DNA from: a virus
IMG/VR virus record: IMGVR_UViG_3300020442_000006
Coordinates: 123,494-187,493 of that record
Length of the DNA stretch: 64,000 nucleotides
Strand: one strand, 5' to 3'
The position numbers and the translations under genes were made by a program. Under the pieces are notes generated by a model. That model worked only from the letters and a program-made list of their open reading frames with translations. It did no database searches and was not told the DNA's origin. Shown one piece after another: positions 6,060 to 50,602 of the stretch (positions within the stretch are counted from its first letter, which is position 1; the number at the start of each line of letters is the position of its first letter).

Positions 6060-7054
6060 ACTTTCTTCCATTGAGATAGTTTTAGTTTTGCTTCTAATCC
6101 TGAGTAGGTATTTGATTCTACCAGGTTTTGTACGTTGTGTCCTGCAAGAACCATATCATTAAGGTCCTTTTGTTGTATTCCTGACGGAAAGATTACTACT
6201 TTGTAACCTCTACCGATGGTGGCGGCGATCCTGTCGGTAATCTCTTTATTCCTTGGTTCGTTATCAAAAACAAAAACACAATCGCTCCAACCAAGCGACC
6301 TAGGATCAAGATCGGACCCACACATAGCAGCACCGTTTTCCAAGAAGAGGGAATCAAACGGTCCTTCCACGAGGTAGACGGTCCGTCCACTGTCCAGTCG
6401 GTCCTGCCCGAATACTTTTGTCTTAGTTTCATCGTATAGAATAGTAATGTAACGGAGACGAGAATTTGGCATTAGGGATCTACCCTGCACACCAAACCAT
6501 TTTCCGTCTTTATCAATCAGAGGAATGATGATACGGGGTCGATCATTCTGGAGGTTGTCAAATGTATGTTTCTGCGAATTGACATACTCTTTGAACTTTT
6601 CTGCATAGTATATAAGGTCAAGTTTTGACCCTGTAATGCCACGTTGTTCAAGGTATTGTCTTGCGGGATGTTCTGTATTTAGACTAGAAATAGTTGGGAG
6701 GTTAGTCCCTGTATTAAATACTGGTTTTGCTTTGAACACATCAGATTTTGGGTTAGCAACCCTTGTCCTTTTGCCTGTCAAACCATCCTTGTATCGCTCT
6801 AAAACGTACTGATCATATATGTCTCGTGCTTGGTCTTTTAAGAAGTTGCCAAGAGTTCTCCCTACCCCACAGTTATGACACTTAAAGATGATGTCATTCT
6901 GTTTAGTAAAGAAATACCCTCTCGCTTTCGATGCCTGCTTCTGGGAGTCTCCACAGTAGGGACATCTAAAGTTGTAGAGGGTAGATTTTTTTTCTTTGAA
7001 CTTATCAAGTCTGCTCCCGACAATGCGAGCATACTTGATGTCAATGAAACTCAT
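6056..7054 (-). CDS. g61: DNA primase (T4 gp61)
   Basis: Zn finger CPYCGD..CHNC, GVQGRSL, TOPRIM VEGPFDS, FDNEPRN, KDLNDM. Confidence 0.96.
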   Translation of the reverse strand: MSFIDIKYARIVGSRLDKFKEKKSTLYNFRCPYCGDSQKQASKARGYFFTKQNDIIFKCHNCGVGRTLGNFLKDQARDIYDQYVLERYKDGLTGKRTRVANPKSDVFKAKPVFNTGTNLPTISSLNTEHPARQYLEQRGITGSKLDLIYYAEKFKEYVNSQKHTFDNLQNDRPRIIIPLIDKDGKWFGVQGRSLMPNSRLRYITILYDETKTKVFGQDRLDSGRTVYLVEGPFDSLFLENGAAMCGSDLDPRSLGWSDCVFVFDNEPRNKEITDRIAATIGRGYKVVIFPSGIQQKDLNDMVLAGHNVQNLVESNTYSGLEAKLKLSQWKKV

Positions 7055-7062
7055 TCAACTTT

Positions 7063-7443
7063 TTATTCGACGCTTCTAATGATACTTGATTGATTGCTTC
7101 CTGTCAACATAGGTCCGATAACTCTCTGTCCTATGGGTGAGAGGATAAAACTGATGACTGTAAGAGCACCTGCGATAGTCCACATCTTTTTCTCTATCAT
7201 ACGGAGTCTTTCATCTACCAGACGGATGTCTCTCTCACATCCTTTCTTGATTGCATCTGTCTCTCTGGTGATGTCTTGATGTATTCTGTCAACTTTTTCA
7301 AACAAAATGTTATCTATCTCGTCTTGTTTGCTTAGTTTTTCATTGTGTACAGCAAGAAGTTGACCCATCTTTACAGAGTTCTCCTGTAATGAATCAACTA
7401 CTCGTTCGAGTCTCTCAATTATAGCGGTGTTAATATCAGACAT
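7063..7443 (-). CDS. Conserved coiled-coil protein with a C-terminal TM segment
   Basis: IIERLERVVDSLQENSVKMGQLLAVH...MWTIAGALTVISFIL; TAATG coupling gives a start at 7443. Confidence 0.75.
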   Translation of the reverse strand: MSDINTAIIERLERVVDSLQENSVKMGQLLAVHNEKLSKQDEIDNILFEKVDRIHQDITRETDAIKKGCERDIRLVDERLRMIEKKMWTIAGALTVISFILSPIGQRVIGPMLTGSNQSSIIRSVE

Positions 7444-9284
7444 TACATTGCTGCCTGGCGTTTCTCCCAATAATAGTGCATCACTTGAGCAGGAAGCATC
7501 CGAGTAATCTTAATACCTTTCAACCTCTCTGGTCTATAAATTTTACGAAGTCTTATCTTGACATCAGCAGGTGACTTACCTTGGAATATAAATTCAACGT
7601 CATCCATCTGCACAAGGAAAGATAGGTATCTTGCCTCGGTAGATTCACATATTTTATTTATGCCATCAGGAGATTTCTTACACTTTGCTTTCTTCTTTGT
7701 TAACTTTGGACCCTTACCTTTCAACTTGGCAGTACCACCCAACGGTTGATCCATACCTGCGGTTGGTCCGTTCTCATCAGCATCAGAGGAGAATCCTGCT
7801 GCACTAGCATTAGATCCTGTACTCATAGTAGGTGCACCTTCCTCGTGCACAAACTTCATACCCTTGATTGCTTTATCCTTAAGTGCCTGACGTTTCTTAG
7901 GATCCATATTCTTTTCGTAGTCTGCTAGTTTAGCAGCAAACTTTCTGTTATCCATCTTCTTGATAACTGCTCTGTCTTTCTTGTCAGGTCCTGTGTATGC
8001 TGCTTCATCAACAAACTTGACAGGCATTGATACTGTTCCTTTTCCTGGAACATACTTTGTAGTTCTAGGTTTCTTAGGATCATCACTCTTGAAGTCCCTA
8101 TGAATCTTAGCGTATTCCTTTTTGGTCATCTTCAATTCTTCTTTCTGGACCTTCTTCTTATCAAACTTCTTACCGATCTTACCACCAATCTTAGATCCAA
8201 CAACACCACCTACCACATCACCTACAGGTAGAGGACCGTCAAGTGCACCAAGAGCAAGTGCTCCACCGATACCACCTACAACAGAACCAATTCTCTCACC
8301 CTTACCAACCTTCTTATCTGCTGCCATCTTATTGATACGCTTCTTAGTGACAGCACTGAACTTCTCCAGTTGCATCTCTTCCTTCACGCCCTTAGTTTTT
8401 ACACCACGCTTTTCCTTGTGTGCTTTGTGTCTCTTATCCATTGCCACAAGTCTCTCAGCAGGATCAGCAGCGTTACCACCTTCACCTGTATGTCTTACGT
8501 TCCTGATAGATGCTTTACCATAGTTAGAACGACCACGTTCCTGACTTAATCTTTGACCGTCACTATCCTTTTGTCTTTCAAGAATAACCTCTTCGTTCTT
8601 TGGTTCTTCTTTTTTCTTTTTCTTTGATGCCAACTTACCACCTGCAATAGCACCTGCAGCACCACCTACACCGTGACCGATTGCTTTACCAACCTGTTTA
8701 CCAATGGCACCACCAACAAGAGGAACAGTTCCTGATCCTACTGCTTGACCAACAGCACCACCAATCTTTCTACCAACTGTAGAACCTACTGCATATCCTG
8801 CACCTGAACCAACTGCCTTACGAACTCTATTACCTTTCTTTGCAGTCAATGCTCCTGCAGTACCTGCCGCTGCTGTTCCTACGAACTCTTTAATATCTTC
8901 TTTCTTTTTCTTCTTACTAATACTTCCCTGTCTGGTGTTGCTATGATCTGCCCCACCTGGAACCACAGTCATTGCTTGTACTGCGTATGCTTCCTTATGT
9001 GTTTTGCCTGGCATTATTGTACCATCAGGCATCTTATGTGCATTCTTCTTAGGACCATAGGTGATACAAGGATCTTTACCACACCCACAGTTCTTTGGTT
9101 TTTTCTCTTCCCCAATCTTCTGAGGTAAATTCTTTTCTTTTGTTTTAGCAAACTTATTAACTGCCTTCGCCCCCATATCTTTTGCAGCACGTTTCAGTTC
9201 GGGCGATGGATCTTTCATCTCTCCCTTCTGGGTGGCACGAACCATTCCCATAAATTTACGTTGTGCTACGGATTTTGCAGGCAT
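7443..9284 (-). CDS. Lys/Gly-rich modular protein, 613 aa (candidate internal head polyprotein)
   Basis: Basic modules separated by xxE/EE motifs; two glycine-zipper segments. Confidence 0.75.
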   Translation of the reverse strand: MPAKSVAQRKFMGMVRATQKGEMKDPSPELKRAAKDMGAKAVNKFAKTKEKNLPQKIGEEKKPKNCGCGKDPCITYGPKKNAHKMPDGTIMPGKTHKEAYAVQAMTVVPGGADHSNTRQGSISKKKKKEDIKEFVGTAAAGTAGALTAKKGNRVRKAVGSGAGYAVGSTVGRKIGGAVGQAVGSGTVPLVGGAIGKQVGKAIGHGVGGAAGAIAGGKLASKKKKKEEPKNEEVILERQKDSDGQRLSQERGRSNYGKASIRNVRHTGEGGNAADPAERLVAMDKRHKAHKEKRGVKTKGVKEEMQLEKFSAVTKKRINKMAADKKVGKGERIGSVVGGIGGALALGALDGPLPVGDVVGGVVGSKIGGKIGKKFDKKKVQKEELKMTKKEYAKIHRDFKSDDPKKPRTTKYVPGKGTVSMPVKFVDEAAYTGPDKKDRAVIKKMDNRKFAAKLADYEKNMDPKKRQALKDKAIKGMKFVHEEGAPTMSTGSNASAAGFSSDADENGPTAGMDQPLGGTAKLKGKGPKLTKKKAKCKKSPDGINKICESTEARYLSFLVQMDDVEFIFQGKSPADVKIRLRKIYRPERLKGIKITRMLPAQVMHYYWEKRQAAM

Positions 9285-9655
9285 CAGAGGTCACTCAACT
9301 GTTTACTTACGGATGCATCAATCTCAACATAATCTAAGGTCCCGCATCCTGTCTCGGGGTATCTATTTAGATAGAGTAAATATGTTTTAAGGATGTCCCA
9401 ATACTGTTTGTCAACCTTGAAGACTAACAAAGGTATGGCAGCATCACCAAATACATTGAATAGTACGATCAAATGATTCAGAATCAAATGGTTACGAAGA
9501 ACCCCAGTCTTTATGTATCTCCCGAAGAGACGCTTCAAATATTTGAAGCGCATCATATCTTCAAGAAAATCATCATAAGTAACTGACTGGGGATTATCGT
9601 AGTGTTTCATAGCGAACATCATAAAGTTGTCCGCTGTGAGTATATCAAATTGCAT
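9284..9655 (-). CDS. Conserved T4-like hypothetical protein
   Basis: MFAMKHYDNPQ...RFKYLKRLF...LILNHLIVLFNVFG pattern, which I recognise from cyanomyoviruses. Confidence 0.75.
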   Translation of the reverse strand: MQFDILTADNFMMFAMKHYDNPQSVTYDDFLEDMMRFKYLKRLFGRYIKTGVLRNHLILNHLIVLFNVFGDAAIPLLVFKVDKQYWDILKTYLLYLNRYPETGCGTLDYVEIDASVSKQLSDL

Positions 9656-9672
9656 TACAAAGAAAGGTTTAA

Positions 9673-10458
9673 TTAACTAACGAAACTTAAAGTAGCGACA
9701 CTACTTACAACTTCTGCGGCACCCTTACTGGTGTTAATTTTAACTCTGTACTGGTTACCATCATTTGCTTCAGTCTGACCTGTCAATGCAAGAGATGCAC
9801 TGGTTGCACCAGATACATTACTGAATCTTCCAGAGGAAGATGTTCTCTTCTGCCACTGATAGGTGATAGTACCTGACTGATCCACAGTTGCTGCAACACT
9901 GAAGGTTGCTGCACCAGAAGATGTGTTTTGGTTAGCAGGTTGAGTACCAATAGTAATGGTCTCAAGCACGTCTGCTGCCACTGTATCATCAGCGTCGTCA
10001 CCAGATACGTTTGCTGCAACTCTAAGTGCTGCAAGTTTTTCTGCCTTGTGACGTGTAGTTCCACCTGCTGTGTTGTATGTTCTATACAACCACCAACCAG
10101 GTCCGTCAATACCACGAGTCTTGTTAGATGCGATACCATCTTCAGTCTCATCAACGAAGATAAGTTGATAGTCTGTGATGCTGTCGCCACCTTTAACTAC
10201 ATACTCAGCAACTGCCTTAGGAGGAGTTCTCCTTACAGCACCAGACAAACCTGCGTTTGTTGAACCTGCATATGCTTTGTGCAATTCGATTGCAGTTGTA
10301 CTTGTAACTTGTTTGACGATGTAAGCGACGTTTGCCAATTCTAGAACATCTCCGACAACAACGGTGTCGGCGGCATTCTTAGTAACTGTTGCGTCACCAT
10401 TTGTGACCGCGACATTATTGGAGAACGTTGCTGCGTCGATTTTGCCCAGAATGGCCAT
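9673..10458 (-). CDS. Virion structural protein with a C-terminal Ig-like domain
   Basis: Thr/Ala-rich; TITIGTQP...ATFSVAA..TYQWQK...YRVKI Ig signature; late promoter upstream. Confidence 0.8.
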   Translation of the reverse strand: MAILGKIDAATFSNNVAVTNGDATVTKNAADTVVVGDVLELANVAYIVKQVTSTTAIELHKAYAGSTNAGLSGAVRRTPPKAVAEYVVKGGDSITDYQLIFVDETEDGIASNKTRGIDGPGWWLYRTYNTAGGTTRHKAEKLAALRVAANVSGDDADDTVAADVLETITIGTQPANQNTSSGAATFSVAATVDQSGTITYQWQKRTSSSGRFSNVSGATSASLALTGQTEANDGNQYRVKINTSKGAAEVVSSVATLSFVS

Positions 10459-10488
10459 CTTGATTTACTCCGAATGTTTCCTATATTT

Positions 10489-10496
10489 TATTTATA
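10489..10496 (-). promoter_or_regulatory. T4 late promoter TATAAATA
   Basis: Perfect consensus about 30 nt upstream of the 10458 start. Confidence 0.85.
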
Positions 10497-10502
10497 CAAA
10501 CA

Positions 10503-10523
10503 CGAAAGGGACCCGAAGGTCCC
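10503..10523 (-). terminator. UUCG hairpin terminator
   Basis: GGGACC-TTCG-GGTCCC followed by TTT; short U-tract. Confidence 0.6.
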
Positions 10524-10537
10524 TAGTGCCTGTGAGA

Positions 10538-10732
10538 CTACCCCTCTACAGGGAATAGTGCCTTCTCAAGTGCCTCAACTAGTTGGTCATCAACAGTGTT
10601 GTCAGTTCTTGAGACTGCTTTCTTTGCTAGAGATACAATAAACTTCTTGATTAGATCGTCTAGATTGTCTGGAATTTTATCAACTGCTGCGTCGATAATT
10701 TTAATTGCGAAAGGTAGAAGAAATTTTGTCAT
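10538..10732 (-). CDS. Small amphipathic helical protein, 64 aa
   Basis: MTKFLLPFAIKII...TDNTVDDQLV; TDNxxDD motif. Confidence 0.7.
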   Translation of the reverse strand: MTKFLLPFAIKIIDAAVDKIPDNLDDLIKKFIVSLAKKAVSRTDNTVDDQLVEALEKALFPVEG

Positions 10733-10768
10733 AATTAATAAACAGAAACCTACTCTATATAGGTGCTG

Positions 10769-11176
10769 TTATGATCCTAAACCACGTCCTTTGTCGTAGT
10801 TATCTTTACCACCGTAACGTGCCATAGTGTTCACGTAATCTTTAGTAGTTTTGAAACCACGTTTCTTAGCATCTGCAGCAGTGGTATCTTTTTGACTCTT
10901 GCGCCTGTCTGCCATTGACTTGTACTTGCCAGTACCTACATCTGACTTAGCACCTTTCTTCTTCTTGATCTGACCAACCTCTTTGCCACCCTGCATATTG
11001 CGTACCATCCGCTTGACGCTTGCAATAGCAGAGTTCTTACCTGCACCACCTTTTTGAGTAGGTGTGCCTGCGGCAGGAGTATTGATACCAGTACGACCAG
11101 AAACTCTGCCAGTGGACTTACCAGTTTCTTTCTCGTACCGATTCAATTCGTTAAGGTATTCTCCGAAAGATTTCAT
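10769..11176 (-). CDS. Basic protein with a capsid-targeting-like N-terminus
   Basis: Starts MKSFGEYLNE; very Lys/Gly-rich. Confidence 0.7.
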   Translation of the reverse strand: MKSFGEYLNELNRYEKETGKSTGRVSGRTGINTPAAGTPTQKGGAGKNSAIASVKRMVRNMQGGKEVGQIKKKKGAKSDVGTGKYKSMADRRKSQKDTTAADAKKRGFKTTKDYVNTMARYGGKDNYDKGRGLGS

Positions 11177-11637
11177 TAGTGATTGTGCGATTCAACAATA
11201 ACCATTTCGAGTTCACTAGCAGGGACTTGACTGTACATTTGCTCTGCCTCATCTACGATGTCGTAGTGAGTGACCTCGTGAGTATGTCCATACTCATCAG
11301 GTTCTGCCATCTCTACCAAAGTATGTGCCTCTGGAATTGTATAGCACAAACCATACTCAGCGTGCTCAACATACTTAGCACACAGATGGGTTTTCTTTCC
11401 CATCGCTTTGGCAACAGTCTTTCTACGATTGATCAGATACTTATCTGACTTATCGTGGTCTCCGTCGTTGTCAATATCCTTGTCTTCTTTACCGACAGGA
11501 TCAAGTCTTGATTTTTTAGATGCTTCTTTGAGGTCAGATAGTTCTGCCTGAAGAAGTGCGCGGATGGATTCCTTCATTAGATCTTCCTTTTTAGGGTTAA
11601 TAATAACTTTTGTTTTTTTGCCCATACTATTTACCAA
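11176..11637 (-). CDS. Hypothetical protein with an EF-hand-like loop
   Basis: DKDIDNDGDHDKSDKYL; C-terminal His/Cys-containing domain. Confidence 0.7.
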   Translation of the reverse strand: MVNSMGKKTKVIINPKKEDLMKESIRALLQAELSDLKEASKKSRLDPVGKEDKDIDNDGDHDKSDKYLINRRKTVAKAMGKKTHLCAKYVEHAEYGLCYTIPEAHTLVEMAEPDEYGHTHEVTHYDIVDEAEQMYSQVPASELEMVIVESHNH

Positions 11638-13732
11638 AGTTCGGGAAGTTCTTCTTGAATAGTTCAGATGCTTCCTTGTGCTTTCCTTTGTTAGTGAGGT
11701 CCTTAGTTTGTTTTAGAACTTCACGCTTCTTCAACTGCTCTGGCGTTGGTTGTTCAGCAATGTACTTGCTGTATGCAAGACGCTCTCTCCAAGAATCAGC
11801 ATCAGGGTTACGTGCCTGTGCGATGTCGTGTTCGAAAGTTTCTTGTGCTAGTGCAAGGCGTCTTACCTTGTCCACTCTTGATTCTGTCATAGTCTCTTCT
11901 CCGAGTTTTCTTGCTAATTTATCAGACCCTTTAGAGATTGCTCTTGAGGTTTTACCAATAACTTTTTTACCAAGATTACCCGCTGCTTGACCAGTCTTCT
12001 TAACAGCACCGCCGACAGCACTACCTGTCTTCTTAACAGCACTACCTGCAGCACTAGCAGTTTTACCAACTACCTTAGCACCTGCCTTAGCAGTGCCTAC
12101 TGCTGCTTTACCACCTGCCTTAGCGACAGAACCTGCTGCTTGTGCAGTTTTACCAACCGCTTTGCCTGCAAGTTTAGCACCACCAACTGCAGTTTTACCT
12201 GCAACTTTAGCGGTACCTACTGCTGCTTTACCTGCAACTTTAGCAGTACCTACTGCTGCCTTACCTGCAAGTTTTGCTCCACCGACTGCCACTTTACCTG
12301 CTGCCTTAGCACCTGCTCCGACTGCCTTTCTAAGTCCTCTGCCGACTGCACCTGCAGCACGACTGAGAAGACCTGGACCTGCCTTCTTCTTAGGAGCGGA
12401 TGAACCACCACCTGACTGAGGTTGTGGTCTGGAGTCTCCACCTGTGGATACTGGTCTGTTGTTTGAGGAAGAGGATCCACCACCACCTGATGATGAACCA
12501 CCTGATGAACCTGATGAACCACCAAGTCCACGCTGTCTGCCTTGAGAGAATTCTCTCTTAGCAGCAGAACCTGCACGTTGTGCAAGACCTGATGCATAAC
12601 CTGCACCACGAACTGCACCTTTTGCACCTGCTTTGGCACCTGCCTTAGCAGCACGTCCTGCCATCCCAAGTCCTTTCTTAACGATAGAACCTGCTTTAGA
12701 TGCAGCGCCTTTCAATCTCTCTGCTCTCTTACCTCTATTGATGCGTGCGGCAGCATCCTTAGATGATTTGACTGCAGAGTCGTAATACTTATCTGATTCA
12801 ACAAGTAGTTCGAATCCATCCAAGATGTCAAGTGCTTCAGATAGATACTGTTCTGATTCGAAATCTAGAAGCGCCTCTACAACAACATCTTGTAGATCCT
12901 GATCTGTAAGGATGTCAAACTCTTCACCGAGTTCGTCTACAACATCCCATACCCATTCCTCGTTAGCGGGTACACAGTTAGGAACGTCCTTACCGTTCTT
13001 TTTCTTGGTACCTTTAGCAACGTAACCGTCCCAACACTTGTCAGCGCCGACGTTCTTACGTGCTTGTTTAAGTCCTTCTTCAACCTGAGTCTTAGGAGTC
13101 GAACCTTTTGCTTTGATTGATCTTTGATTCTCGCATTGAGGATCAACGGTTGACTGCTTTTCCTTAGGTGTATCAATCTTAGGAGATGCAGCACTTGGTT
13201 TGTTGTTCAGTGTTGCTGCATTAGAAGTTTCCTCCTTGATCTTTGCACGCTTTGCCTTTGTCTTGGCAAGGATTCTATCGCGTGCTTCAGATGCTGCCTT
13301 GTTAGGACCATCATATGCCATCGCACCTTTCTGCATTCTTGGTGCTCTGATCTTATCTACACCATCACCTTTGTAGATACCATAGGCACTACCTTCGGTG
13401 ACATCATCTTCGACATCGTGCTCAATAACTTTACCGTTCTCATCCTTCTCGTGATGCTCAACGTTGAGTGTCTTAGGATAATCCTTATCACCTTTCTTTG
13501 CAGGTGCTTCTCCACGCTTTCTCTTAGCGTGAATGTTATCCCATAAACCTTTCTTACCTTCGATGATAACTTCAGCGATTGCCTTCTCTGTTGGAGTGAC
13601 AAGACGCTCCTCAAGATAAGCATAGCGTGCTTCACCAGTGAAGTTATGCTCTGCGTATTCAATAACGTAGGTAACTGATTGTACGTCCGAAGGTGAATAC
13701 TTCAGAAGTTTCGAAGTAATTTCTAAATCCAT
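11627..13732 (-). CDS. Modular 701 aa protein with 11-residue Ala/Gly/Lys repeats (candidate internal head polyprotein)
   Basis: xxE-delimited modules; (AVGTAKVAGKA)n repeats; late promoter at 13755-13760. Confidence 0.75.
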   Translation of the reverse strand: MDLEITSKLLKYSPSDVQSVTYVIEYAEHNFTGEARYAYLEERLVTPTEKAIAEVIIEGKKGLWDNIHAKRKRGEAPAKKGDKDYPKTLNVEHHEKDENGKVIEHDVEDDVTEGSAYGIYKGDGVDKIRAPRMQKGAMAYDGPNKAASEARDRILAKTKAKRAKIKEETSNAATLNNKPSAASPKIDTPKEKQSTVDPQCENQRSIKAKGSTPKTQVEEGLKQARKNVGADKCWDGYVAKGTKKKNGKDVPNCVPANEEWVWDVVDELGEEFDILTDQDLQDVVVEALLDFESEQYLSEALDILDGFELLVESDKYYDSAVKSSKDAAARINRGKRAERLKGAASKAGSIVKKGLGMAGRAAKAGAKAGAKGAVRGAGYASGLAQRAGSAAKREFSQGRQRGLGGSSGSSGGSSSGGGGSSSSNNRPVSTGGDSRPQPQSGGGSSAPKKKAGPGLLSRAAGAVGRGLRKAVGAGAKAAGKVAVGGAKLAGKAAVGTAKVAGKAAVGTAKVAGKTAVGGAKLAGKAVGKTAQAAGSVAKAGGKAAVGTAKAGAKVVGKTASAAGSAVKKTGSAVGGAVKKTGQAAGNLGKKVIGKTSRAISKGSDKLARKLGEETMTESRVDKVRRLALAQETFEHDIAQARNPDADSWRERLAYSKYIAEQPTPEQLKKREVLKQTKDLTNKGKHKEASELFKKNFPNFGK
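12160..12324. repeat. 33-nt tandem repeat, about 5 degenerate units (11-aa period)
   Basis: Units start at about 12160, 12193, 12226, 12259 and 12292, e.g. TTTACCTGCAACTTTAGC(A/G)GTACCTACTGCTG. Confidence 0.85.
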
Positions 13733-13753
13733 CTGTCGAAAATTTGCGTAATA

Positions 13754-14911
13754 CTATTTAGTTGACCCTGTTTTTCTGAAGTCACTGAATTTTTTGACCA
13801 ACTGTCCAGGTGTCATCGCTTGGACTGCGTGTCTATATGTATCAGTGCCGACCTTCCAGGTGTTTCCACTGCCATCGTCTGCTGACTTATGCAGTTCTTT
13901 TACTTCCATAATAGAAGTTAACCAGACATTGAATTTCCAATTCTCTGGTGTCTCAAAGATTACATAATTAGTTCCTCTTCTGATGACCGTACCTCTTACA
14001 CCTGTGTCTAGGTGTTCGACAATACAACCAAGTGGGAATACTCTATCTTCGAAGAACGCTTCACGAAGATTCTCTGAATCAAGTTTAGGAGCGATGTCCC
14101 AAAGTTCAGCAACCTCTTCCTGTTCCTGTTCAACGATACCCATACCTGCACGAACTTCCATCATTAGTTGTTCAGCAAGTTTGATGTCACCACCAGGGAC
14201 ACCTTGGGCAAAACCTTCTAAGTCACCCGCCGCTGCCATTGCTCGCAACTTGGATGCACTCATACCTTCTACACCTTCAGCATCAGGATCTCTTTCTCCT
14301 GCACTGATCACATTGAGTTCTTCAAATTCATATGCCTGACCGTTATACTTCTCAAGTAATGACTTGAATTCTGATACACGATCAGAACCAACAACCATAG
14401 TTACACCTGAGTAACCCTCTTGGTTGAGGTTGGAAAGTACATTGAAGATGTTAGACATATCACCATCGTTGACGATAGCGTCAGCGTGATTAGGGAACAT
14501 CTTTTGCATAAAATCAATCTTAACATCAGGTTCTAGTGGGTTCTTTTTAGGATCCACAGTACGTGATGGATAGATTCTATAGTTATCAGCACCCTGTTCA
14601 GATACAGTGTTCAGTAGTTTCTCGTGACCAACAGTAGGAGGATTAAAACGTCCAAAGGTTAGAGCGATAGTACCCAGACCTTCACCACTATTAATATGCT
14701 CGTCTTCTGCTGCTCCTTGATTGGAGTTCATCTGTGCTTGTTCTGCCTCTTTACCATCGACAGGCACCAGACGATTACCTCCTTCAGACTTAGCAACGAT
14801 GTTACCCTGCCTATCAGCATAGTAACCGTGACCTGCGTGTTGGAGACCTCTCTTAGCAGCAACCTCACCTGCAGCGGTGCGTGCTTCAGTTATAAACTGA
14901 CTGAACTTCAT
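13754..14911 (-). CDS. HIGH-superfamily nucleotidyltransferase (cytidyltransferase/NMNAT-like)
   Basis: ALTFGRFNPPTVGHEKL, MVVGSDR, GMSASKLR. The second ATG (MKFSQFITEA) is preferred because a late promoter sits at 14936-14941. Confidence 0.85.
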   Translation of the reverse strand: MKFSQFITEARTAAGEVAAKRGLQHAGHGYYADRQGNIVAKSEGGNRLVPVDGKEAEQAQMNSNQGAAEDEHINSGEGLGTIALTFGRFNPPTVGHEKLLNTVSEQGADNYRIYPSRTVDPKKNPLEPDVKIDFMQKMFPNHADAIVNDGDMSNIFNVLSNLNQEGYSGVTMVVGSDRVSEFKSLLEKYNGQAYEFEELNVISAGERDPDAEGVEGMSASKLRAMAAAGDLEGFAQGVPGGDIKLAEQLMMEVRAGMGIVEQEQEEVAELWDIAPKLDSENLREAFFEDRVFPLGCIVEHLDTGVRGTVIRRGTNYVIFETPENWKFNVWLTSIMEVKELHKSADDGSGNTWKVGTDTYRHAVQAMTPGQLVKKFSDFRKTGSTK

Positions 14912-14941
14912 TGATATACTGGTGTTTTCCATATCTATTTA

Positions 14942-16135
14942 TCACCCCCAATTTTTTTCTACTGTGAAGTTCGCTCTAGAGAACTCCAAACGATCCACAA
15001 GTTTGAGGGCAGAACCTGATTTGATCGCTACAAAACCCTCTGGTGCAGTAACTCTGTAACCATTGGGTGTCTTAATATATGTACCGATGTCTTGAACCTT
15101 TCCTAGTTGTCTGACAACTACAGTCTTAGCAGCGATCAAATTCATATAGGATGCGACAGTCATATAGACAGCACGTGAATTTGACTTCAAGAACTTCAAA
15201 CCATTTGCTTTGATGGTCTGATATTTTTTCTTGGTTGCTTCTTGTTTCTTAGACTGGATCTCTTTGTCTAGTGCTGCTGAATAGAATGCAGCAAATCCTG
15301 CTGCAACTCTCTGTGCATTGACAATAGGTTTACCAGTACGAATGAATGAGTTGAAATAAACTTTGAACATAGCAGAGAGCATAAACTTACCCTCTCCTTG
15401 ATCCTGTAGGATGTCCAAGAATCTAGATGCTTGCTTAAGAGAACCTTCAGCACGGTTGACTAGCAGATCATACTTACCTCTCTCTGCAGCATTAAACCTA
15501 GATGCATCTGTAGCATCTGTAAAGTCTGAACTAAACACTGCAACGTTGGGTGTTGCCTGCATTCTTTTTACATCAACACCAAACCCAGGTTTCATATCTC
15601 TGAGTGTAGGACCACCAGTATATGTGGTATGAAATACAATACCAAGTTGACTGGTTGCTACCTTCTTACCCATAGGTGTGTTGGTAGGTACAGCATATGT
15701 GATGGTGTTTGGCATAAAAGTATGACACTTCTGACCATTCATCTTCTTTGTTGTCACATCACCTTTGGTGAACAACAAATCACCCTGCAGTACACCATTC
15801 ATAGGTACCTGAGGAAGGAGACGCAAGCACATCTTTAGTTTCTTTGCCAGTTCTCCACTATAGAATCTATCTACATCTTCATCATTCATACAAAGTTTTG
15901 GCATCTTAGCAAAGACACCCTTAGTACCAACAAAAAACCTACCAGTTGAGGGATGCTTGCCACAAATAACAGCAGGAGCACCGTCCCATTTGGTAGTAAC
16001 ACCGACACCTGACACAGGTTCGGTGAGCATCTTGCCAAGTTCCCTTAGGAATGCGATAGCGTTACGTCCTCCGTTCGAACCTTGGTTTAGGATGTCATCT
16101 TCAAGGTGTTCGAGGTGGGTATTTTGCTTTGCCAT
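14942..16135 (-). CDS. Conserved phage protein with covalent nucleotidyltransferase (RNA/DNA ligase-like) motifs
   Basis: TTKWDGAP (motif I KxDG), LQGDLLF, IVFH, PEGFVA..LKLVD (motifs IV/V-like). Start MAKQNTHLEHLED. Confidence 0.65.
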   Translation of the reverse strand: MAKQNTHLEHLEDDILNQGSNGGRNAIAFLRELGKMLTEPVSGVGVTTKWDGAPAVICGKHPSTGRFFVGTKGVFAKMPKLCMNDEDVDRFYSGELAKKLKMCLRLLPQVPMNGVLQGDLLFTKGDVTTKKMNGQKCHTFMPNTITYAVPTNTPMGKKVATSQLGIVFHTTYTGGPTLRDMKPGFGVDVKRMQATPNVAVFSSDFTDATDASRFNAAERGKYDLLVNRAEGSLKQASRFLDILQDQGEGKFMLSAMFKVYFNSFIRTGKPIVNAQRVAAGFAAFYSAALDKEIQSKKQEATKKKYQTIKANGLKFLKSNSRAVYMTVASYMNLIAAKTVVVRQLGKVQDIGTYIKTPNGYRVTAPEGFVAIKSGSALKLVDRLEFSRANFTVEKNWG

Positions 16136-16142
16136 ACCTTTA

Positions 16143-16976
16143 TTATACCTCGTATCGGACCACAATGGCATTTTGACGGACACCTGTAATTTTGTCCTTA
16201 CCCCTGCCCTTCAATGCCATCCTGACACCTGCCTGTTTCATCACACCTCTGACTACTTTCTCATCAATTTCTTTCACACCATCCTCAGTGAGGATATGAG
16301 ACGCTGCTCTGTCATCATTGTTGAATAACATAGCACCTGTCATACACTCGTGTGTAAGATTATACTTGAAGCAATCATATGCAGCAGCACCATCAGGTTT
16401 TGATTTCGAACCTAGCACTTCTTGCAACTGTTCATTCAATCCACCTGCCTTCTTTATATCTGAAAGGATTCTTTTTGCTGTTGGTTGATCAACAGTTCCC
16501 TTTGCGTTCTCACATTTATTACCAATCTGCTCAAGGATCAACTGTAAGTAACCAAGTGTCTGTGCGTTAGTAGATCCACCACCACAATCCTTAGCAGTCT
16601 TTGCTAATACTTTTTGGAATACTGCTACAGACTTATCAATGCCTGCAGATGTCAACTGATATGACTTGCCCCATTTCATAGAGCATTTGTATGTCACACC
16701 ACCTGACTTAAACATAATGTCTGTCTTTGGTTCTTCTCCACCACCAGACATCTTTTGGAATGACTTATAATATTTCTGCCTTGCTTCTATATTATTACCA
16801 GTAGGTGCCATAGACTCAACAATTCTATCTGCAGCAGACTTTATATCATTTGGGATAGCACCAATACGTCCTGATGCATCCTCAAAATCTTTCTGGTTTT
16901 GCGAACTCTTATTAATAATACGACTCGTTGCCGAGTACATCACAGCGTGTTCAAATTGCAATCCTTTGTTTGCCAT
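16143..16976 (-). CDS. Hypothetical protein, possible PD-(D/E)xK nuclease fold
   Basis: N-terminal FE; EPKTDIMF..YKCSMKW resembles a PD..(D/E/S)xK catalytic layout; late promoter at 16995-17000. Confidence 0.45.
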   Translation of the reverse strand: MANKGLQFEHAVMYSATSRIINKSSQNQKDFEDASGRIGAIPNDIKSAADRIVESMAPTGNNIEARQKYYKSFQKMSGGGEEPKTDIMFKSGGVTYKCSMKWGKSYQLTSAGIDKSVAVFQKVLAKTAKDCGGGSTNAQTLGYLQLILEQIGNKCENAKGTVDQPTAKRILSDIKKAGGLNEQLQEVLGSKSKPDGAAAYDCFKYNLTHECMTGAMLFNNDDRAASHILTEDGVKEIDEKVVRGVMKQAGVRMALKGRGKDKITGVRQNAIVVRYEV

Positions 16977-16997
16977 TGCACTAAACTTTTTAAGTAT

Positions 16998-17528
16998 TTA
17001 TGAAACCCAATCTGGTTTACGTTCTGGCAAACGGAGATAGTTATCTTTGACCCAAGGTTTTGAAGCGATATACCTTTTATATGCTGTGAATGTATCTATT
17101 GACTGGTCGTGTTTGAATTCATCGTACATTGCTCTGGCAAAGGGTGTAGGATGCTTCCCGCTCCTGCCAGTAGGATCGCCAGTAGGAAATATTTTACGTG
17201 CGTGTTCAAGAGTGAATTGACACGAGTGAACTTTGCCATAGCGAAGAGTGTATTCATTGCAGAGTGCAAGACCGTGAGTGATTAACCATCGCCAGTTGAG
17301 CACAAAACTGTTTGCCCATACTGTACAGGGATGATTACGAAAGGCACCCTTGTCTGTCTTGTAAGGAGTACCGTCAAGTTTTGGTAGGTCACCGAAACCG
17401 TGACCCCACTTTTCTGATGCGACAATAGAAAGCATCTGACAGGTTTCAAGTGGCATTTTGACAATGTGCTTGTCAGGTAGACTTCTGGCAGATGCTATTG
17501 GATCAGGATCAGTAACGAAGATATTCAT
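16998..17528 (-). CDS. Pyrimidine-dimer DNA glycosylase (DenV-like) family protein
   Basis: MNIFVTD..SA..LPDKHIVKMPLETCQML, HPCTVW, L..EY..RYGKVH; ATG at 17528. Confidence 0.8.
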   Translation of the reverse strand: MNIFVTDPDPIASARSLPDKHIVKMPLETCQMLSIVASEKWGHGFGDLPKLDGTPYKTDKGAFRNHPCTVWANSFVLNWRWLITHGLALCNEYTLRYGKVHSCQFTLEHARKIFPTGDPTGRSGKHPTPFARAMYDEFKHDQSIDTFTAYKRYIASKPWVKDNYLRLPERKPDWVS

Positions 17529-17552
17529 AAACCTGATTATGTAATGGTGTGT

Positions 17553-17740
17553 GGGAGGTAGGAATACATTATACCTACAAGTTATGGGAATCGCTAGTGC
17601 GAAAATTAGTACATAACAACAACAGTCATCCTGGTAAGGACTTCTCCGAAGAGCGGGCACCACCCCTGACCGTTTACATTACCCCGCCTAATTCCAACAG
17701 GGTTATTCAGTCACTCCCGTGTCGGTTGATCGGTCCGACT
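17553..17740 (-). ncRNA. Structured ncRNA or leader, manA-RNA-like
   Basis: Closing GGGAG/CUCCC stem, AACGGUCA/UGACUGUU, CUC(UUCG)GAG, UCGC(ACUA)GCGA and GUAGG/CCUAC helices. The GUGACUGAAUAA and GGUGGUGC blocks resemble the manA motif as I recall it. Confidence 0.6.
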
Positions 17741-17745
17741 CCTAT

Positions 17746-17774
17746 AATATAACCGACTTACTTTCTTTTGTCAA
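17746..17774 (-). promoter_or_regulatory. Sigma70-type promoter
   Basis: TTGACA-17 nt-TATATT, immediately upstream of the structured RNA. Confidence 0.8.
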
Positions 17775-17931
17775 CCCCGAATCTCTTATCCATTTTTAGT
17801 TTGAGATAATACATCCCAAGAATCCATAGAGAGAAAAGAAATCCCTCTCCATATGACATAGAGTTCCAAGCACTGACTGCTCCACCGAGCATAGCAAGTG
17901 TTGTCTTTGCTGCAAGCATTTCTGCACCCAT
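17758..17931 (-). CDS. Small membrane protein, 57 aa
   Basis: Translated by hand: MGAEMLAAKTTLAMLGGAVSAWNSMSYGEGFLFSLWILGMYYLKLKMDKRFGVDKRK; TAATG coupling to mazG. Confidence 0.65.
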   Translation of the reverse strand: MGAEMLAAKTTLAMLGGAVSAWNSMSYGEGFLFSLWILGMYYLKLKMDKRFGVDKRK

Positions 17932-18497
17932 TATCTGTCCCCCTTCTTACGGTTTTCAGACCTGACGACAGTGAACTGACCCTCAGGATAACGTGTGGTC
18001 AGTTTAACTGTGTTACGGAAGACAACTTCATCGATACCTACACCAAGTGCCATACACGCTTGGGCGACATACCACATAACATCACCAAGTTCAATGATGA
18101 GATGCTCTTTGTTGTCATCATTCCAGGGTTTGCCTTGGAACTTAAGTTTCTTGACAATCTCCATAAACTCACCACCCTCAGCAACAAGACCAGAGGCAGC
18201 AGTGTCAAGACGTTCGATGTCACACCCTTCTCCCTTGAGAGTTTCATAGCGTTCCATCAGTGTGTCAAAATCTTTTGACTCTTTGCTAGTAGTTTGATTT
18301 ACAAACTTCAGATAGTTAGCAAGATCGACTGTGAATGGTTCTTTCTTCTTGGCATTCTTGTTACGCTTTTCGTAAACTTCTTTGCCTTTGAATCCCTGCG
18401 GTCCCTTAAATTCTTTAGGGATGCGATCAGCAGGGTTGTCCATAGATTCGGGTTCTGTGTTCACAGATTCCCGAAACTCTGCTTTGTCCTCAGTCAT
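17931..18497 (-). CDS. mazG: MazG-like nucleotide pyrophosphohydrolase
   Basis: GLVAEGGEFMEIVKK, ELGDVMWY, KL..RYP. Confidence 0.92.
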   Translation of the reverse strand: MTEDKAEFRESVNTEPESMDNPADRIPKEFKGPQGFKGKEVYEKRNKNAKKKEPFTVDLANYLKFVNQTTSKESKDFDTLMERYETLKGEGCDIERLDTAASGLVAEGGEFMEIVKKLKFQGKPWNDDNKEHLIIELGDVMWYVAQACMALGVGIDEVVFRNTVKLTTRYPEGQFTVVRSENRKKGDR

Positions 18498-18499
18498 AA

Positions 18500-19876
18500 T
18501 TAAATTTTGAAATCGTTAAAGTTTTGTTTAGAGAAGGTTAGGATGTCAGATGCATCAATCGTTTCCTCTTGTCCAGAGTCCACGATCTTCTTTTGTTCTT
18601 CACAATCATACAGACGCATCTTCGCTCTGTCAATACCCACAACAAATCGTTTGTTTACTGTGGGATCATTGTATCTATTCTTGAGTTGCTTCACCATAAT
18701 TTGATTCAACTCTTCCATCTCCTCAGTAGAGATCAGAGCAACCATAAAGTCTGCAGTAGCAGGAAGTCCAAATGACTCCGAAGTATCTGTCAGGTCAACA
18801 TCACTGTTGCCATAACCACTACGAGTAGTTTGAGTAGCGGATACGATAGGAACATTATGTTCACCTGCAAGTCCACGTAATTCTTCAGCAATGGATTTAA
18901 CAAATGTGTATGAGTTAACTATAGCACCTTTGTATCGTGATGAACTACAAATGTTAAGGTAGTCAACATAAATGATGTCTGGTACAAATGCTTTCTTGAT
19001 AGAAAGTTCTTGCAACAATGCCTTGAAGTGTCCTACGTGTGCTGATGCAGTAGGATATTCCTTAATCAAGAGACGACCCTGTGTTTTGTTTTGAACCTTT
19101 TCGATCTTAGAATCGAACATTGGTTTAGGTAGTGTCTCTAGTTTCTGAACTGGAATGTTCATCAAGTTAGCATCAATACGCTCAGCAATCTTTTCTTCTG
19201 CCATTTCCAACGTGATGTATAGCACGTTATATCCTGCAGCAAGATTAGCAGCAGCACAGTGACACATAAACAAACTCTTACCAACACCTGTACCTGCAAG
19301 TGCTACGTTCAATGTCTTCTTAGATAGACCACCCTTGGTAACTTTGTTGAGTAATTCAATATCAAACGGAACCTTTTCTTCTACCCTGTGATAGAACTGG
19401 TAACGTTGATCAGCATCATCAAGATAGTCGTGACCAACAGAATTATCGAAACTAACAGATAAAGCATTGGAGAGAATAGAAGGGATAGCATCACGTCCCA
19501 TTGTCTCAGACTTACCATCAGCAATCTGGATAGACTCTAGGAGTGCATTGTAGATAGCACGATCACGACACCACTTTTCTGAGGTGTGTACCAACCAGTC
19601 GATTTCGTGTGGTTCTTCAGTGGCAAAATCAAGTGTTTGTTTTACGTCAGTGAATGTAGTTTCATTTAGATCATCACGTGACTCAATCTCAATACGCAAT
19701 GCTTCCTTTGTAGGGAGACTATCGTACTGAGTAAAATAAGAAGACAGTTCCTCAAAGATTACCTTGTTATTGTAGTTCTCAAAGTAATCTGTTTTGATGT
19801 GAGGAAGAGTCTTCCTAGTGAAGTCTGTATTGTGCAACAGAGATGCAACAACCAGATCCTCTACAGAATTAGACAT
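18500..19876 (-). CDS. g41: Replicative helicase (T4 gp41)
   Basis: AGTGVGKS, ITLEMAEE, VDYLNI, ATQTTRSG, SESFGLPATAD, QLKNRY; start MSNSVE at 19876. Confidence 0.97.
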   Translation of the reverse strand: MSNSVEDLVVASLLHNTDFTRKTLPHIKTDYFENYNNKVIFEELSSYFTQYDSLPTKEALRIEIESRDDLNETTFTDVKQTLDFATEEPHEIDWLVHTSEKWCRDRAIYNALLESIQIADGKSETMGRDAIPSILSNALSVSFDNSVGHDYLDDADQRYQFYHRVEEKVPFDIELLNKVTKGGLSKKTLNVALAGTGVGKSLFMCHCAAANLAAGYNVLYITLEMAEEKIAERIDANLMNIPVQKLETLPKPMFDSKIEKVQNKTQGRLLIKEYPTASAHVGHFKALLQELSIKKAFVPDIIYVDYLNICSSSRYKGAIVNSYTFVKSIAEELRGLAGEHNVPIVSATQTTRSGYGNSDVDLTDTSESFGLPATADFMVALISTEEMEELNQIMVKQLKNRYNDPTVNKRFVVGIDRAKMRLYDCEEQKKIVDSGQEETIDASDILTFSKQNFNDFKI

Positions 19877-20426
19877 AATGAATGTAAGTTCCCGCGATGT
19901 ATTTTGCGTTAGAGATTGCAGGTAGTCCTGCGTGAGGGTATGTCCACGTGGGAGGGAACACCAATAGTCTACCACACTTAGGAGTAACTTTCATATGTTT
20001 GAATTCAGTTTCTCCACCCTCTTCGACATCATTTAGATACCAGAACAGTACAAGCATTCTCTTAGCAGACTCGTGGTCACCCACATCAACGTGCCATTTG
20101 AATTCATCGTCTGTATCTGGTTTGTATCTCTTGATTCTAAACTGTTCAAGTGATGTCTTCATTGGAAAGTATTGTCTGCAGTCACAGTCATCCATATATT
20201 TTTGGATGTAATCGTGTGCAGACCTGATGAGTTCTGACTGGATAATATCCCAGTCTTTGTTCTCAGTTTTTTCTATCTTCTCAGTGATGTTGAACTGTGC
20301 AAACGTAGGACGACCGTCTCTATCCCAGACATCGAGTTCTTCTTCCTCGAATAATCTGATTGCATTAGTACAAACTTCCTTGGGCAGGGCATCATCATAG
20401 ACCCTGATGAAATGATTAGGATCCAT
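19869..20426 (-). CDS. 2OG-Fe(II) oxygenase (prolyl-hydroxylase-like)
   Basis: [27 protein letters not shown]. Confidence 0.9.
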
Positions 20427-49782: not shown

Positions 49783-50433
49783 TCACAGGGAGTTTAAGAA
49801 TTTTGAAAACGCGGAAATCTTCCGCTCTTCAAGAATCTTGCTACTGGCAGCATTGTCAATTTGCCTCTTCATATGGTTAATTTCAGACTCTTGAATGATT
49901 CCGTTATTCCAGATCCATTCTTTGCCTTCCATAATTCCATTGACAAAAGCATCGGGTGCTGAAGGATCAGCAACAATGTCTGCTGCGGTTGCCAACATAA
50001 AATCATCAGCAACTACTTTTGCTCCGTCACGAGTTTCTTGGAGTGAACCAATTCCACGTGATGAAACACCTAGTTTCACGCCTTCACCCAAAAGGTTCTT
50101 AGCGATGTTACCCATAGGAGTATCTAGGATTCTTGCTCTTCCTCTGAAGTTGTTACCTTCTTGGACTAGCGATGTGATCAAATGTGATACACGGTCGAGG
50201 TTAACTGTTGGTCCATCAGGATGTCCCAGTTCGCCGAGGGCGCGACCATTTTTAACAAAAGATTCATTGTATTTATCAACTTCTCTACGGAGTGTGTTGA
50301 TAGGGTACATTCTTCCATTGCGATTTTTGATCTCGCCTTGTAGGAATGTTCCTTCTATGTATAGATTTTTCTTACCGTTCTTCTCCTCAGAAAGGATCTG
50401 AACGTCTTCAATCTGTTCCGTAATCAGTTTCAT
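49783..50433 (-). CDS. g21: Prohead protease (gp21)
   Basis: MKLITE, YIEGTFLQ, NRNGR.YP, GELGHP, GVSSRG.GS, DIVADPSAP. Confidence 0.98.
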   Translation of the reverse strand: MKLITEQIEDVQILSEEKNGKKNLYIEGTFLQGEIKNRNGRMYPINTLRREVDKYNESFVKNGRALGELGHPDGPTVNLDRVSHLITSLVQEGNNFRGRARILDTPMGNIAKNLLGEGVKLGVSSRGIGSLQETRDGAKVVADDFMLATAADIVADPSAPDAFVNGIMEGKEWIWNNGIIQESEINHMKRQIDNAASSKILEERKISAFSKFLNSL

Positions 50434-50602
50434 TTGGTTCCTCTTGAGTTTCAGGTTGCATCCAGTCACCTGCAATTTCCTTTTTCTTTGCTTCTAGAGC
50501 ATCGGCGGTAATTGCTTTCATCGCATCATCAACTTCACTACTGAGATCTTTCGATCCCGAAAAGATTTTGTTGACGATTTCTTTCGCTTGAATTGATGGC
50601 AT
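50408..50602 (-). CDS. Prohead core protein (gp67/68-like)
   Basis: Small helical protein between g20 and g21. Confidence 0.65.
   Translation of the reverse strand: MPSIQAKEIVNKIFSGSKDLSSEVDDAMKAITADALEAKKKEIAGDWMQPETQEEPNETDYGTD

Follow-up and report, generated by a model that had tools for sequence, protein, structure and literature searches.

ORF2 and ORF1, two neighbouring open reading frames (ORFs) on the minus strand of a 64,000-nt stretch of viral DNA (the window; positions 123,494 to 187,493 of IMG/VR record IMGVR_UViG_3300020442_000006), form a linked pair in which a leader-free DUF6267 protein stands beside a partner tagged with a capsid-targeting leader. ORF2 (14942..16135, 397 amino acids from its ATG) is predicted to be RNA ligase-like, and ORF1 (13754..14911, 385 amino acids) resembles nicotinamide mononucleotide (NMN) adenylyltransferases (NMNATs) with a HIGH signature. 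We consider it probable, though by no means assured, that this linked and partly injected pair seals strands with the supply of an adenylate- or nicotinamide adenine dinucleotide (NAD)-type cofactor, and that ORF3 (16143..16976, minus strand, 277 amino acids), a predicted MspI/HinP1I-like nuclease directly upstream, is an accessory. The kinds of protein involved are known ones, namely the RNA-ligase superfamily, HIGH transferases and T4 capsid cargo.

The source record is a 187,493-bp virus genome that is rated complete and belongs to a T4-like cyanomyovirus. Its nearest deposited relatives are Synechococcus phages, with protein identities of approximately 60% to S-PRM1 (ORF2) and 62% to S-IOM18 (ORF3). 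An earlier note on this DNA had listed the three genes as adjacent and on the same strand, and ORF3, ORF2 and ORF1 were indeed found in this arrangement. It had further read them as a cut/seal/adenylate system that is possibly delivered by the virion. The linked ligase-like/NMNAT-like pair, with one member probably injected, survives from this proposal, whereas the nuclease appears to be an unrelated accessory. The note knew of no functional description of the combination; our literature search likewise found none, and no papers were found for DUF6267.

A ligase-like protein and its NMNAT-like neighbour

ORF2 begins at the ATG at 16135 (MAKQNTHLEHLED), just past the ORF3 stop codon and where its homologues begin. 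A GTG start at 16183 was rejected, because it overlaps ORF3 and the homologues begin at the ATG. The protein matched Pfam DUF6267 end to end (E 1.6e-128), a large, uncharacterised family of 2,486 clusters at 50% identity that is present in 468 phage records. In an alignment of 78 diverse homologues (33-57% identity), K49-W-D51-G52, G118-D119, Y147, H169, E366-G367 and K378 were invariant. Lys49 (codon at 15989..15991, minus strand) lies in TTKWDG, corresponding to ligase motif I, and is the predicted adenylylated nucleophile.

The AlphaFold (AF2) model of ORF2 had a predicted local distance difference test (pLDDT) score of 94.8 and a predicted template modelling (pTM) score of 0.92. When the model was compared with 48,161 chains using VIA-align, the 14 best matches were all ligases, with RNA ligases first (Z 6.0-8.9 over 148-197 residues). 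NgrRnl (Z 8.9), REL1 (7.9), Trl1 (7.4 and 7.2), T4 Rnl1 (6.9) and T4 Rnl2 (6.9) were followed by Rnl3 (6.7) and then by DNA ligases (approximately 6). Among viral models (BFVD), RNA ligases from phages and giant viruses gave the best, though weak, matches outside the family. Additionally, hhalign placed PEGFVAIK..LKL of ORF2 on IEGYVAV..FKI of T4 Rnl1 (E227..K240), which corresponds to motifs IV/V (E 0.038 with one sequence and 0.015 with an 18-member Rnl1 alignment). A suboptimal alignment, not significant alone, paired K49 of TTKWDG with K99 (KEDG) of T4 Rnl1. The Pfam family of T4 Rnl1, RNA_lig_T4_1 (PF09511), did not match ORF2 itself and was weakly matched by 2 of the 78 relatives (best E 6e-4).

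In the model, residues 216-344 form a helical insert, and the chain ends 19 residues past motif V. Neither an OB domain nor motif VI was found in the secondary structure of the model. The protein ends so soon after motif V that it has no OB domain, and in this it follows the pattern of RNA ligases and not that of DNA ligases. A shorter homologue from S-SM1 has a trimmed insert and keeps every motif. Thus, as modelled, ORF2 has the nucleotidyltransferase fold and the collinear motifs I, III, IV and V of ATP-dependent RNA ligases. The ligase-like character proposed in the earlier note is therefore supported by fold and motif order. As hhalign puts PEGFV at motif IV and LKLVD at motif V, IVFH is not motif IV.

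The closest known counterparts are the OB-less RNA ligases (NgrRnl/Rnl5, T. brucei REL1, T4 Rnl2, T4 Rnl1 and fungal Trl1). ORF2 shares with them its modelled fold (Z 6.9-8.9), the collinear motifs I (KxDG), III, IV (EGFV) and V, and a helical accessory domain in place of the OB domain. Unlike these enzymes, it has no significant match to any ligase Pfam family, its helical domain sits as an insert between motif III and motif IV instead of being appended, and another residue takes the place of the second Lys in motif V (KLVDR). DUF6267 proteins also differ in having a conserved N-terminal HLEHLED and, in many members, a T4-type capsid-targeting leader: among the 120 representatives with a readable N-terminus, the leader precedes HLEHLED in 39, and 22 are clearly leaderless.

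ORF1 starts with the ATG at 14911 (MKFSQFITEA), which is Met8 of the mechanical ORF and the start used by all homologues, just as the earlier note had guessed. The protein matched PHROG 395, "cytidyltransferase" (E 2.5e-87), and its family is present in 564 phage records. It consists of the leader, an N-terminal domain of approximately 50 residues containing Gly and His, the transferase domain and a C-terminal beta-rich domain, the counterpart of which is a separate small gene in S-CAM3. The nucleotidyltransferase domain (14138..14674, minus strand) contains FGRFNPPTVGH (HxGH) and GMSASKLR (ISxTxxR-like), and the Pfam and NCBIfam matches fall there. The TVGH and MSASK motifs pointed out in the earlier note lie in columns (FGRFNPPxxGH and GMSASKxR) that are invariant in the family alignment. 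The weak NCBIfam and PDB profile matches of ORF1 were all NMNAT or NadD. With all three proteins as queries, NCBIfam gave nothing above the cut-off and sequence and family-profile searches against PDB chains gave nothing significant; an ESM Atlas search returned matches from the query protein's own family only.

On these motifs, ORF1 is best described as a HIGH-signature, NMNAT-like adenylyltransferase that is closest to the archaeal type (M. jannaschii MJ0541, NadM and NadR), with which it shares GRFxPxxxGH and a second motif, SxxKxR. It differs from these enzymes in scoring far below the family cut-offs, in lacking a Nudix or kinase fusion, in its extra N- and C-terminal domains and in its coupling to a ligase-like gene. 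It also differs from phage NAD+ salvage systems (NadV with NadM/NadR; NARP2), as it has no NadV partner.

The two genes are closely associated. The transferase gene was located downstream of DUF6267 on the same strand in 59 of the 64 assessable IMG/VR loci; in the leaderless clade the two genes overlap or abut, and elsewhere they are 0.3-2.6 kb apart. Moreover, DUF6267 and the transferase are fused in either order, one such fusion being a 591-aa protein of S-PM2. Other fusion partners of the transferase are Pol-beta-like, P-loop kinase, RimK plus protease and DUF5824 modules, and in one case DUF6267 is joined to an AAA_33 kinase. The related loci with RimK ATP-grasp plus Zn-protease, P-loop kinase or Pol-beta-like domains fused to the transferase are L080:5537-8674, L064:1737-3788, L050:7183-9924 and L028:6699-8936. 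Injected "polyvalent" proteins typically show mixed fusions of this kind (PMC5512222); therefore, fusion alone is no proof of a shared pathway. The relatives of ORF1 resemble these effectors (Iyer et al. 2017, PMC5512222) in being fused to kinase, Pol-beta-like, RimK and protease domains and in their delivery-type N-termini, whereas that survey is without ligase-fold or HIGH-transferase modules and its hub domains (MuF, metallopeptidase and ArdC) are absent here.

The genomic context raises the question of whether ORF2 fills a gap. A search of the complete genome found no ATP- or NAD-dependent DNA ligase and no relative of gp30, and ORF2, judged by its model, could be a candidate for the missing ligase function, as an RNA ligase or as a sealer of replication nicks. 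NgrRnl, REL1 and Rnl2, which are among its best structural matches, seal nicks in duplexes. ORF2 might thus be an unrecognised replicative ligase of cyanomyoviruses, standing in for T4 gp30 in sealing Okazaki fragments while ORF1 regenerates a nucleotide cofactor. Its location within the replication module, with the gp41 helicase gene on one side and the gp61 primase gene on the other in synteny with other cyanophages, and the lack of a head tag in its clade are consistent with such a role. To our knowledge, however, all known DNA ligases have an OB domain and motif VI, both of which ORF2 lacks; RNA ligases rank above DNA ligases in its fold search; and the capsid leader on a third of the readable DUF6267 representatives is ill-suited to a replisome enzyme. 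We therefore regard a replicative ligase as unlikely. Cyanomyoviruses have been recorded as lacking gp30, rnlA and pseT, with the existence of distant homologues left open (PMC2984593, PMC1079782), and the absence of gp30 and rnlA speaks for a stand-in of this kind.

The gap also bears on what the family might mean. Cyanomyoviruses are among the most abundant viruses of the ocean, and reviews list no recognisable DNA or RNA ligase for them. A near-universal, unannotated gene with a predicted ligase fold in the replication module makes the ligase gap directly testable. A bolder proposal, which we put forward as speculative and quite improbable, is that DUF6267 is the strand-joining enzyme whose absence from T4-like cyanophages has been assumed since 2005, working in a two-enzyme cycle with its NMNAT-like partner: AMP from NAD+ or ATP would be used to seal RNA-containing or DNA nicks, the transferase would rebuild the dinucleotide donor locally, and one or both enzymes would be preloaded in the capsid. 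In that case, sealing capacity would arrive together with the genome.

Capsid-targeting leader and predicted delivery

The leader of ORF1, MKFSQFITE (14885..14911, minus strand), is of the T4 type, with a predicted prohead-protease cut after Glu9 (ITE/A). The T4 prohead protease cuts at (I/L)xE/A sites. The first 20 residues of ORF1 (MKFSQFITEARTAAGEVAAK) match those of T4 IPII (MKTYQEFIAEARVGAGKLEAA) and IPIII (MKTYQEFIAEASVV; T4 record NC_000866), and this similarity continues beyond the ten residues of the targeting sequence and covers the (I/L)xE/A site. The expected leader-cutting enzyme, a gp21-type head maturation protease, is encoded at 49783..50475 on the minus strand (PHROG 207, E 2e-86), and the window also encodes a scaffold protein, a major capsid protein and a portal. 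The major capsid protein (47323-48690, minus strand) has an ILTE/AAP site approximately 50 residues from its N-terminus, similar to the predicted ITE/A cut of ORF1 and to the maturation site of T4 gp23.

ORF1 therefore invites comparison with T4 IPI-III and Alt. Its N-terminus (MKFSQFITEARTAAGE) resembles that of IPII (MKTYQEFIAEARVGAGK) and has the same (I/L)xE/A cleavage site, the genome encodes a gp21-type protease, a late-promoter-like box precedes the gene, and homologues are found in virions. Unlike these T4 proteins, ORF1 is an enzyme of approximately 40 kDa and not a small basic protein, it belongs to the replication module, and its cleavage and ejection are predicted.

A search of the whole 187-kb genome for the leader pattern identified two ORFs only, namely ORF1 and a 135-aa basic protein that starts with MKSFGEYLNE (10769-11176, minus strand) and lies in the same island as ORF1. 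ORF2 and ORF3 have no leader in this phage, and the clade of ORF2 starts directly at M-A-K-N-T-H. Most transferase homologues carry the leader. In 80 related metagenomic loci, it was found on 70 of 1,618 ORFs, 48 of which were DUF6267 or transferase; the remaining ones include adenylate kinase (Pfam ADK, E 2e-37), AAA_33/Zeta-type kinases, HAD/NT5C-like phosphatases and DUF6321 proteins. Several tagged genes outside the pair lie near DUF6267 (L023:1244-1831, L038:7348-8022, L081:7483-8202, L085:4544-5074 and L032:7393-7680) and look like a nucleotide-handling kit. As ligase-like proteins, kinases, nucleotidases and RimK-type enzymes of related marine phages bear this same tag, injection of such a kit may be common among marine T4-like phages; if so, a layer of the biology of early infection and counter-defence would have been overlooked.

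Published virion proteomes are in line with delivery of the transferase. Homologues of ORF1 were detected in virions of S-SZBM1, S-CREM2, S-SCSM1 and S-CBWM1 (PMC9146016, PMC10665884, PMC9602691). In S-SZBM1, the tagged transferase (MRFRQFIIEA) was detected, and its untagged DUF6267 neighbour (MAKNTHLEHLED) is not among the detected proteins in the available part of the table, which is what the tag hypothesis predicts. In addition, genes downstream of the transferase were detected in virions (S-SZBM1_139 and S-CREM2 ORFs 155, 156 and 160), which fits a small island of capsid cargo genes. Judging from its leader, ORF1 is probably loaded into heads and injected with the DNA. Of the virion delivery suggested for all three proteins, the part concerning ORF1 is supported by its leader, the gp21-type protease and the published virion homologues, whereas ORF2 and ORF3 are untagged here. 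The head tag on ORF1-type enzymes offers a concrete mechanism for the repeated finds of "cytidylyltransferase" in cyanophage particles.

We propose the following course for the ORF2/ORF1 pair. ORF1 would be made late, from its own ATAAATA box, and its MKFSQFITE leader would load it into the prohead. The gp21-type protease would trim the leader after Glu9, and ORF1 would be ejected into the next host with the DNA. Without the leader, which has been lost in this clade, ORF2 probably acts only once it has been synthesised in the infected cell, where it would form Lys49-AMP and seal a broken strand, with RNA or an RNA-containing nick being a likelier substrate than plain DNA. The likeliest purpose would be early protection or repair of nucleic acid, coupled to adenylate or NAD-type cofactor supply. 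ORF3 would occupy a variable upstream slot and would not be an obligatory third component.

Several points weigh against this proposal. The ligase Z-scores of ORF2 are modest (6-9), its sequence relates it only weakly to known ligases (E 0.015-0.04), and a Foldseek search of its model against PDB returned nothing significant. ORF1 scored below the cut-offs of Pfam PF01467 (CTP_transf_like; 18.1 bits vs 21), for which many of its close homologues are flagged, and of NCBIfam NF006479 (14.3 bits vs 164) and TIGR00482 (11.8 vs 112), so NMN as its substrate is a guess. The resemblance of its leader to those of T4 is limited to approximately 20 residues, and detection in virions may reflect carry-over of abundant proteins, as the authors of the proteomes note. 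Since the transferase is also found fused to kinases, RimK and other enzymes, fusion may be a sign of co-delivery and not of a shared pathway. Finally, searches of the complete genome found no Nampt and no real polynucleotide kinase, the AAA_33 matches being Walker A motifs in other genes; with no Nampt and no polynucleotide kinase/phosphatase, the phage encodes neither complete NAD salvage nor T4-style heal-and-seal RNA repair.

Some of these points also bear on a different role for ORF1, as a genuine NMN adenylyltransferase that is injected to restore NAD+ against NAD-depleting host defences, independently of ORF2. The similarity of GRFxPxxxGH to archaeal NMNAT/NadM/NadR, the restriction of the weak PDB and NCBIfam matches to NMNAT or NadD, and the tagged adenylate kinase and nucleotidase genes in some related loci are compatible with it, and the same role has been proposed by the authors of the cyanophage virion proteome papers. 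Nevertheless, the genome lacks Nampt or any other NMN source, all scores are far under the family cut-offs, and the tight linkage and fusion of the transferase with a ligase-like protein would be left unexplained; this role thus appears somewhat unlikely. To the picture of the proposed strand-sealing pair, this locus contributes a DUF6267 without a leader next to a tagged partner, an arrangement that agrees with the S-SZBM1 proteome, together with the predicted nuclease fold of ORF3 and the missing-ligase context.

An MspI/HinP1I-like nuclease in a variable slot

ORF3 (PHROG 22045) gave no match in searches of Pfam, NCBIfam and PDB sequences. In an alignment of 28 homologues, E9, E82, K84, T85, D86, C98, S99, K101 and Q107 were invariant, and the motifs K84-T85-D86 and C98-S99-x-K101 thus fall in invariant columns. 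The AF2 model (pLDDT 86.9) was aligned by VIA-align with MspI (1sa3; Z 9.0 over 191 residues), HinP1I (1ynm; Z 9.0 over 182 residues) and HhaI (6uke; Z 6.4), the next, unrelated chain having a Z of 5.2. Foldseek of the model against PDB found nothing significant, and its best, weak match was HinP1I. As modelled, ORF3 has a PD-(D/E)xK-type restriction-endonuclease fold of the MspI/HinP1I kind that is shared over the whole protein. The PD-(D/E)xK-like nature that the earlier note had read from the motifs is thus borne out by the model and its alignment to MspI, HinP1I and HhaI.

ORF3 has a variant catalytic pattern, E9 ... D86-x12-S99-x-K101, in which E9 and the pattern residues are invariant. 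In its overall pattern, TD-x12-SxK with an early Glu appears to resemble the non-canonical catalytic motifs of MspI and HinP1I. ORF3 therefore shares with MspI, HinP1I and HhaI a match over the whole length and, presumably, the (S/T)D...(non-acidic)xK pattern with an N-terminal Glu. It differs from them in sequence (12-13% identity), in being borne by a phage and in lacking a cognate methyltransferase: no match to PF00145 or PF01555 (C5 and N4/N6 DNA methyltransferases) was found in the complete genome.

The family of ORF3 is small, with 119 clusters and members in 10 phage records. It is present in 10 of the 80 related metagenomic loci and lies directly upstream of DUF6267 in 9 of these 10. 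The proteins in the same slot of S-PRM1, S-CAM3 and S-SZBM1 had no Pfam match, and hhalign of the ORF3 family against them was not significant. The S-PRM1 gene in this slot (L001:4075-5001) has a PK.D ... S.K ... SFQ pattern like that of the catalytic region of ORF3 (hhalign E 0.12) and, on this pattern, may be a very divergent homologue. Because the family is small and unrelated or barely related genes fill the slot elsewhere, ORF3 is a sporadic accessory gene in a variable slot and not a fixed third component.

This distribution also speaks against one obligatory three-gene system, since ORF3 occurs in 10 phage records, compared with 468 for ORF2 and 564 for ORF1. Co-occurrence in other phages holds for the ORF2/ORF1 pair and fails for ORF3 in most loci. 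It could still be argued that the three genes are one cut/seal/adenylate machine, packed in the virion and acting jointly on host or phage nucleic acid, since they lie side by side in one orientation without intervening terminators, both the nuclease and the ligase fold are backed by the models, and the ORF3 family, where present, is nearly always directly upstream of DUF6267. With its rarity, the unrelated genes in its slot in other phages and the absence of the head tag from both ORF3 and ORF2, we consider such a machine very unlikely.

ORF3 could instead be a free-standing selfish or host-degrading endonuclease, possibly CCGG-specific and tolerated in a site-free genome. The 187-kb genome has 59 copies of GCGC, which HinP1I and HhaI cut, but no CCGG (0 vs 119.5 expected), and an MspI-like cutter of CCGG would thus be harmless to the phage. 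That MspI is the best structural match, that neither a C5 nor an N4/N6 methyltransferase was found in the genome, and that the gene is sporadic between conserved genes all agree with this idea. However, CCGG is equally missing from phages without ORF3 (S-SZBM1, 0 vs 68 expected in 68 kb; S-CAM3, 0 vs 9.8 in 11 kb), sequence specificity cannot follow from fold similarity, and Ser replaces the acidic residue of the (D/E)xK motif. We regard a selfish or host-degrading nuclease as possible, though doubtful. CCGG avoidance was rejected as proof of the specificity of ORF3; since phages without the gene share it, it is a lead and not evidence. An MspI-like orphan nuclease in a CCGG-free genome would be a simple test case of a restriction enzyme without a methylase in a phage. 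Other tetranucleotides are also scarce in this genome, including CATG (12 vs 666 expected), AGCT (13 vs 396) and GGCC (19 vs 71).

Gene island and promoter-like boxes

The three genes lie in a conserved cyanomyovirus gene island between the helicase/MazG/DenV and primase genes. On the minus strand, the gp41 helicase gene (18500-19975) is followed by MazG (17931-18497), a DenV-like glycosylase gene (mechanical ORF at 16998-17663, with a Pfam match that begins at residue 46), ORF3, ORF2 and ORF1, and then by a 701-aa low-complexity protein, several small basic proteins, a head protein and the gp61 primase (6056-7054). The common order helicase, MazG, variable genes, DUF6267, "cytidyltransferase", large hypothetical protein and primase was found in S-PRM1, S-CAM3, S-SZBM1 and S-SM1. 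The low-complexity and basic proteins downstream of ORF1 form an island at 7443-13732 of the window (minus strand), which includes the head protein (9673-10458, PHROG 613), with a TATAAATA box upstream of it. A DenV-type glycosylase gene adjoins capsid-cargo genes both here (16998-17663) and in T4, where denV lies beside ipII and ipIII (L086:2940-4416), although a coincidence is possible.

Two late-promoter-like boxes, noticed earlier as TAAATA at 16995-17000 and 14936-14941, were both found on the minus strand. The first (CATAAATA, 17002-16995) contains ATAAATA at 16995-17001 and lies 18 nt before the ATG of ORF3; the second (GATAAATA, 14943-14936) has ATAAATA at 14936-14942, overlaps the stop codon of ORF2 and lies 24 nt upstream of the true start of ORF1. 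ATAAATA is not enriched in the window (12 found vs 9.8 expected), so the weight of these boxes comes from their position. Perfect TATAAATA boxes were found in the same window 26-39 nt ahead of the portal, scaffold and one head-protein gene, and the published late promoter of cyanomyoviruses is NATAAATA (PMC2984593). Contigs from three marine RNA libraries, belonging to relatives of approximately 95% identity, cover ORF1, ORF2 and the ORF2/ORF1 junction (13700-16310 of the window); with DNA carry-over possible, such contigs cannot show transcription, starts or levels.

A strong sigma-70-like promoter (TTGACA-17-TATATT, with 11 of 12 consensus matches) was located upstream of the DenV-like gene (17746..17774, minus strand) and, by its sequence, might drive early transcription of the entire gene run. 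No convincing terminator was found between the genes of the run; therefore, early read-through and late starts are both plausible, an arrangement that has been described for many cyanophage genes (PMC2984593).

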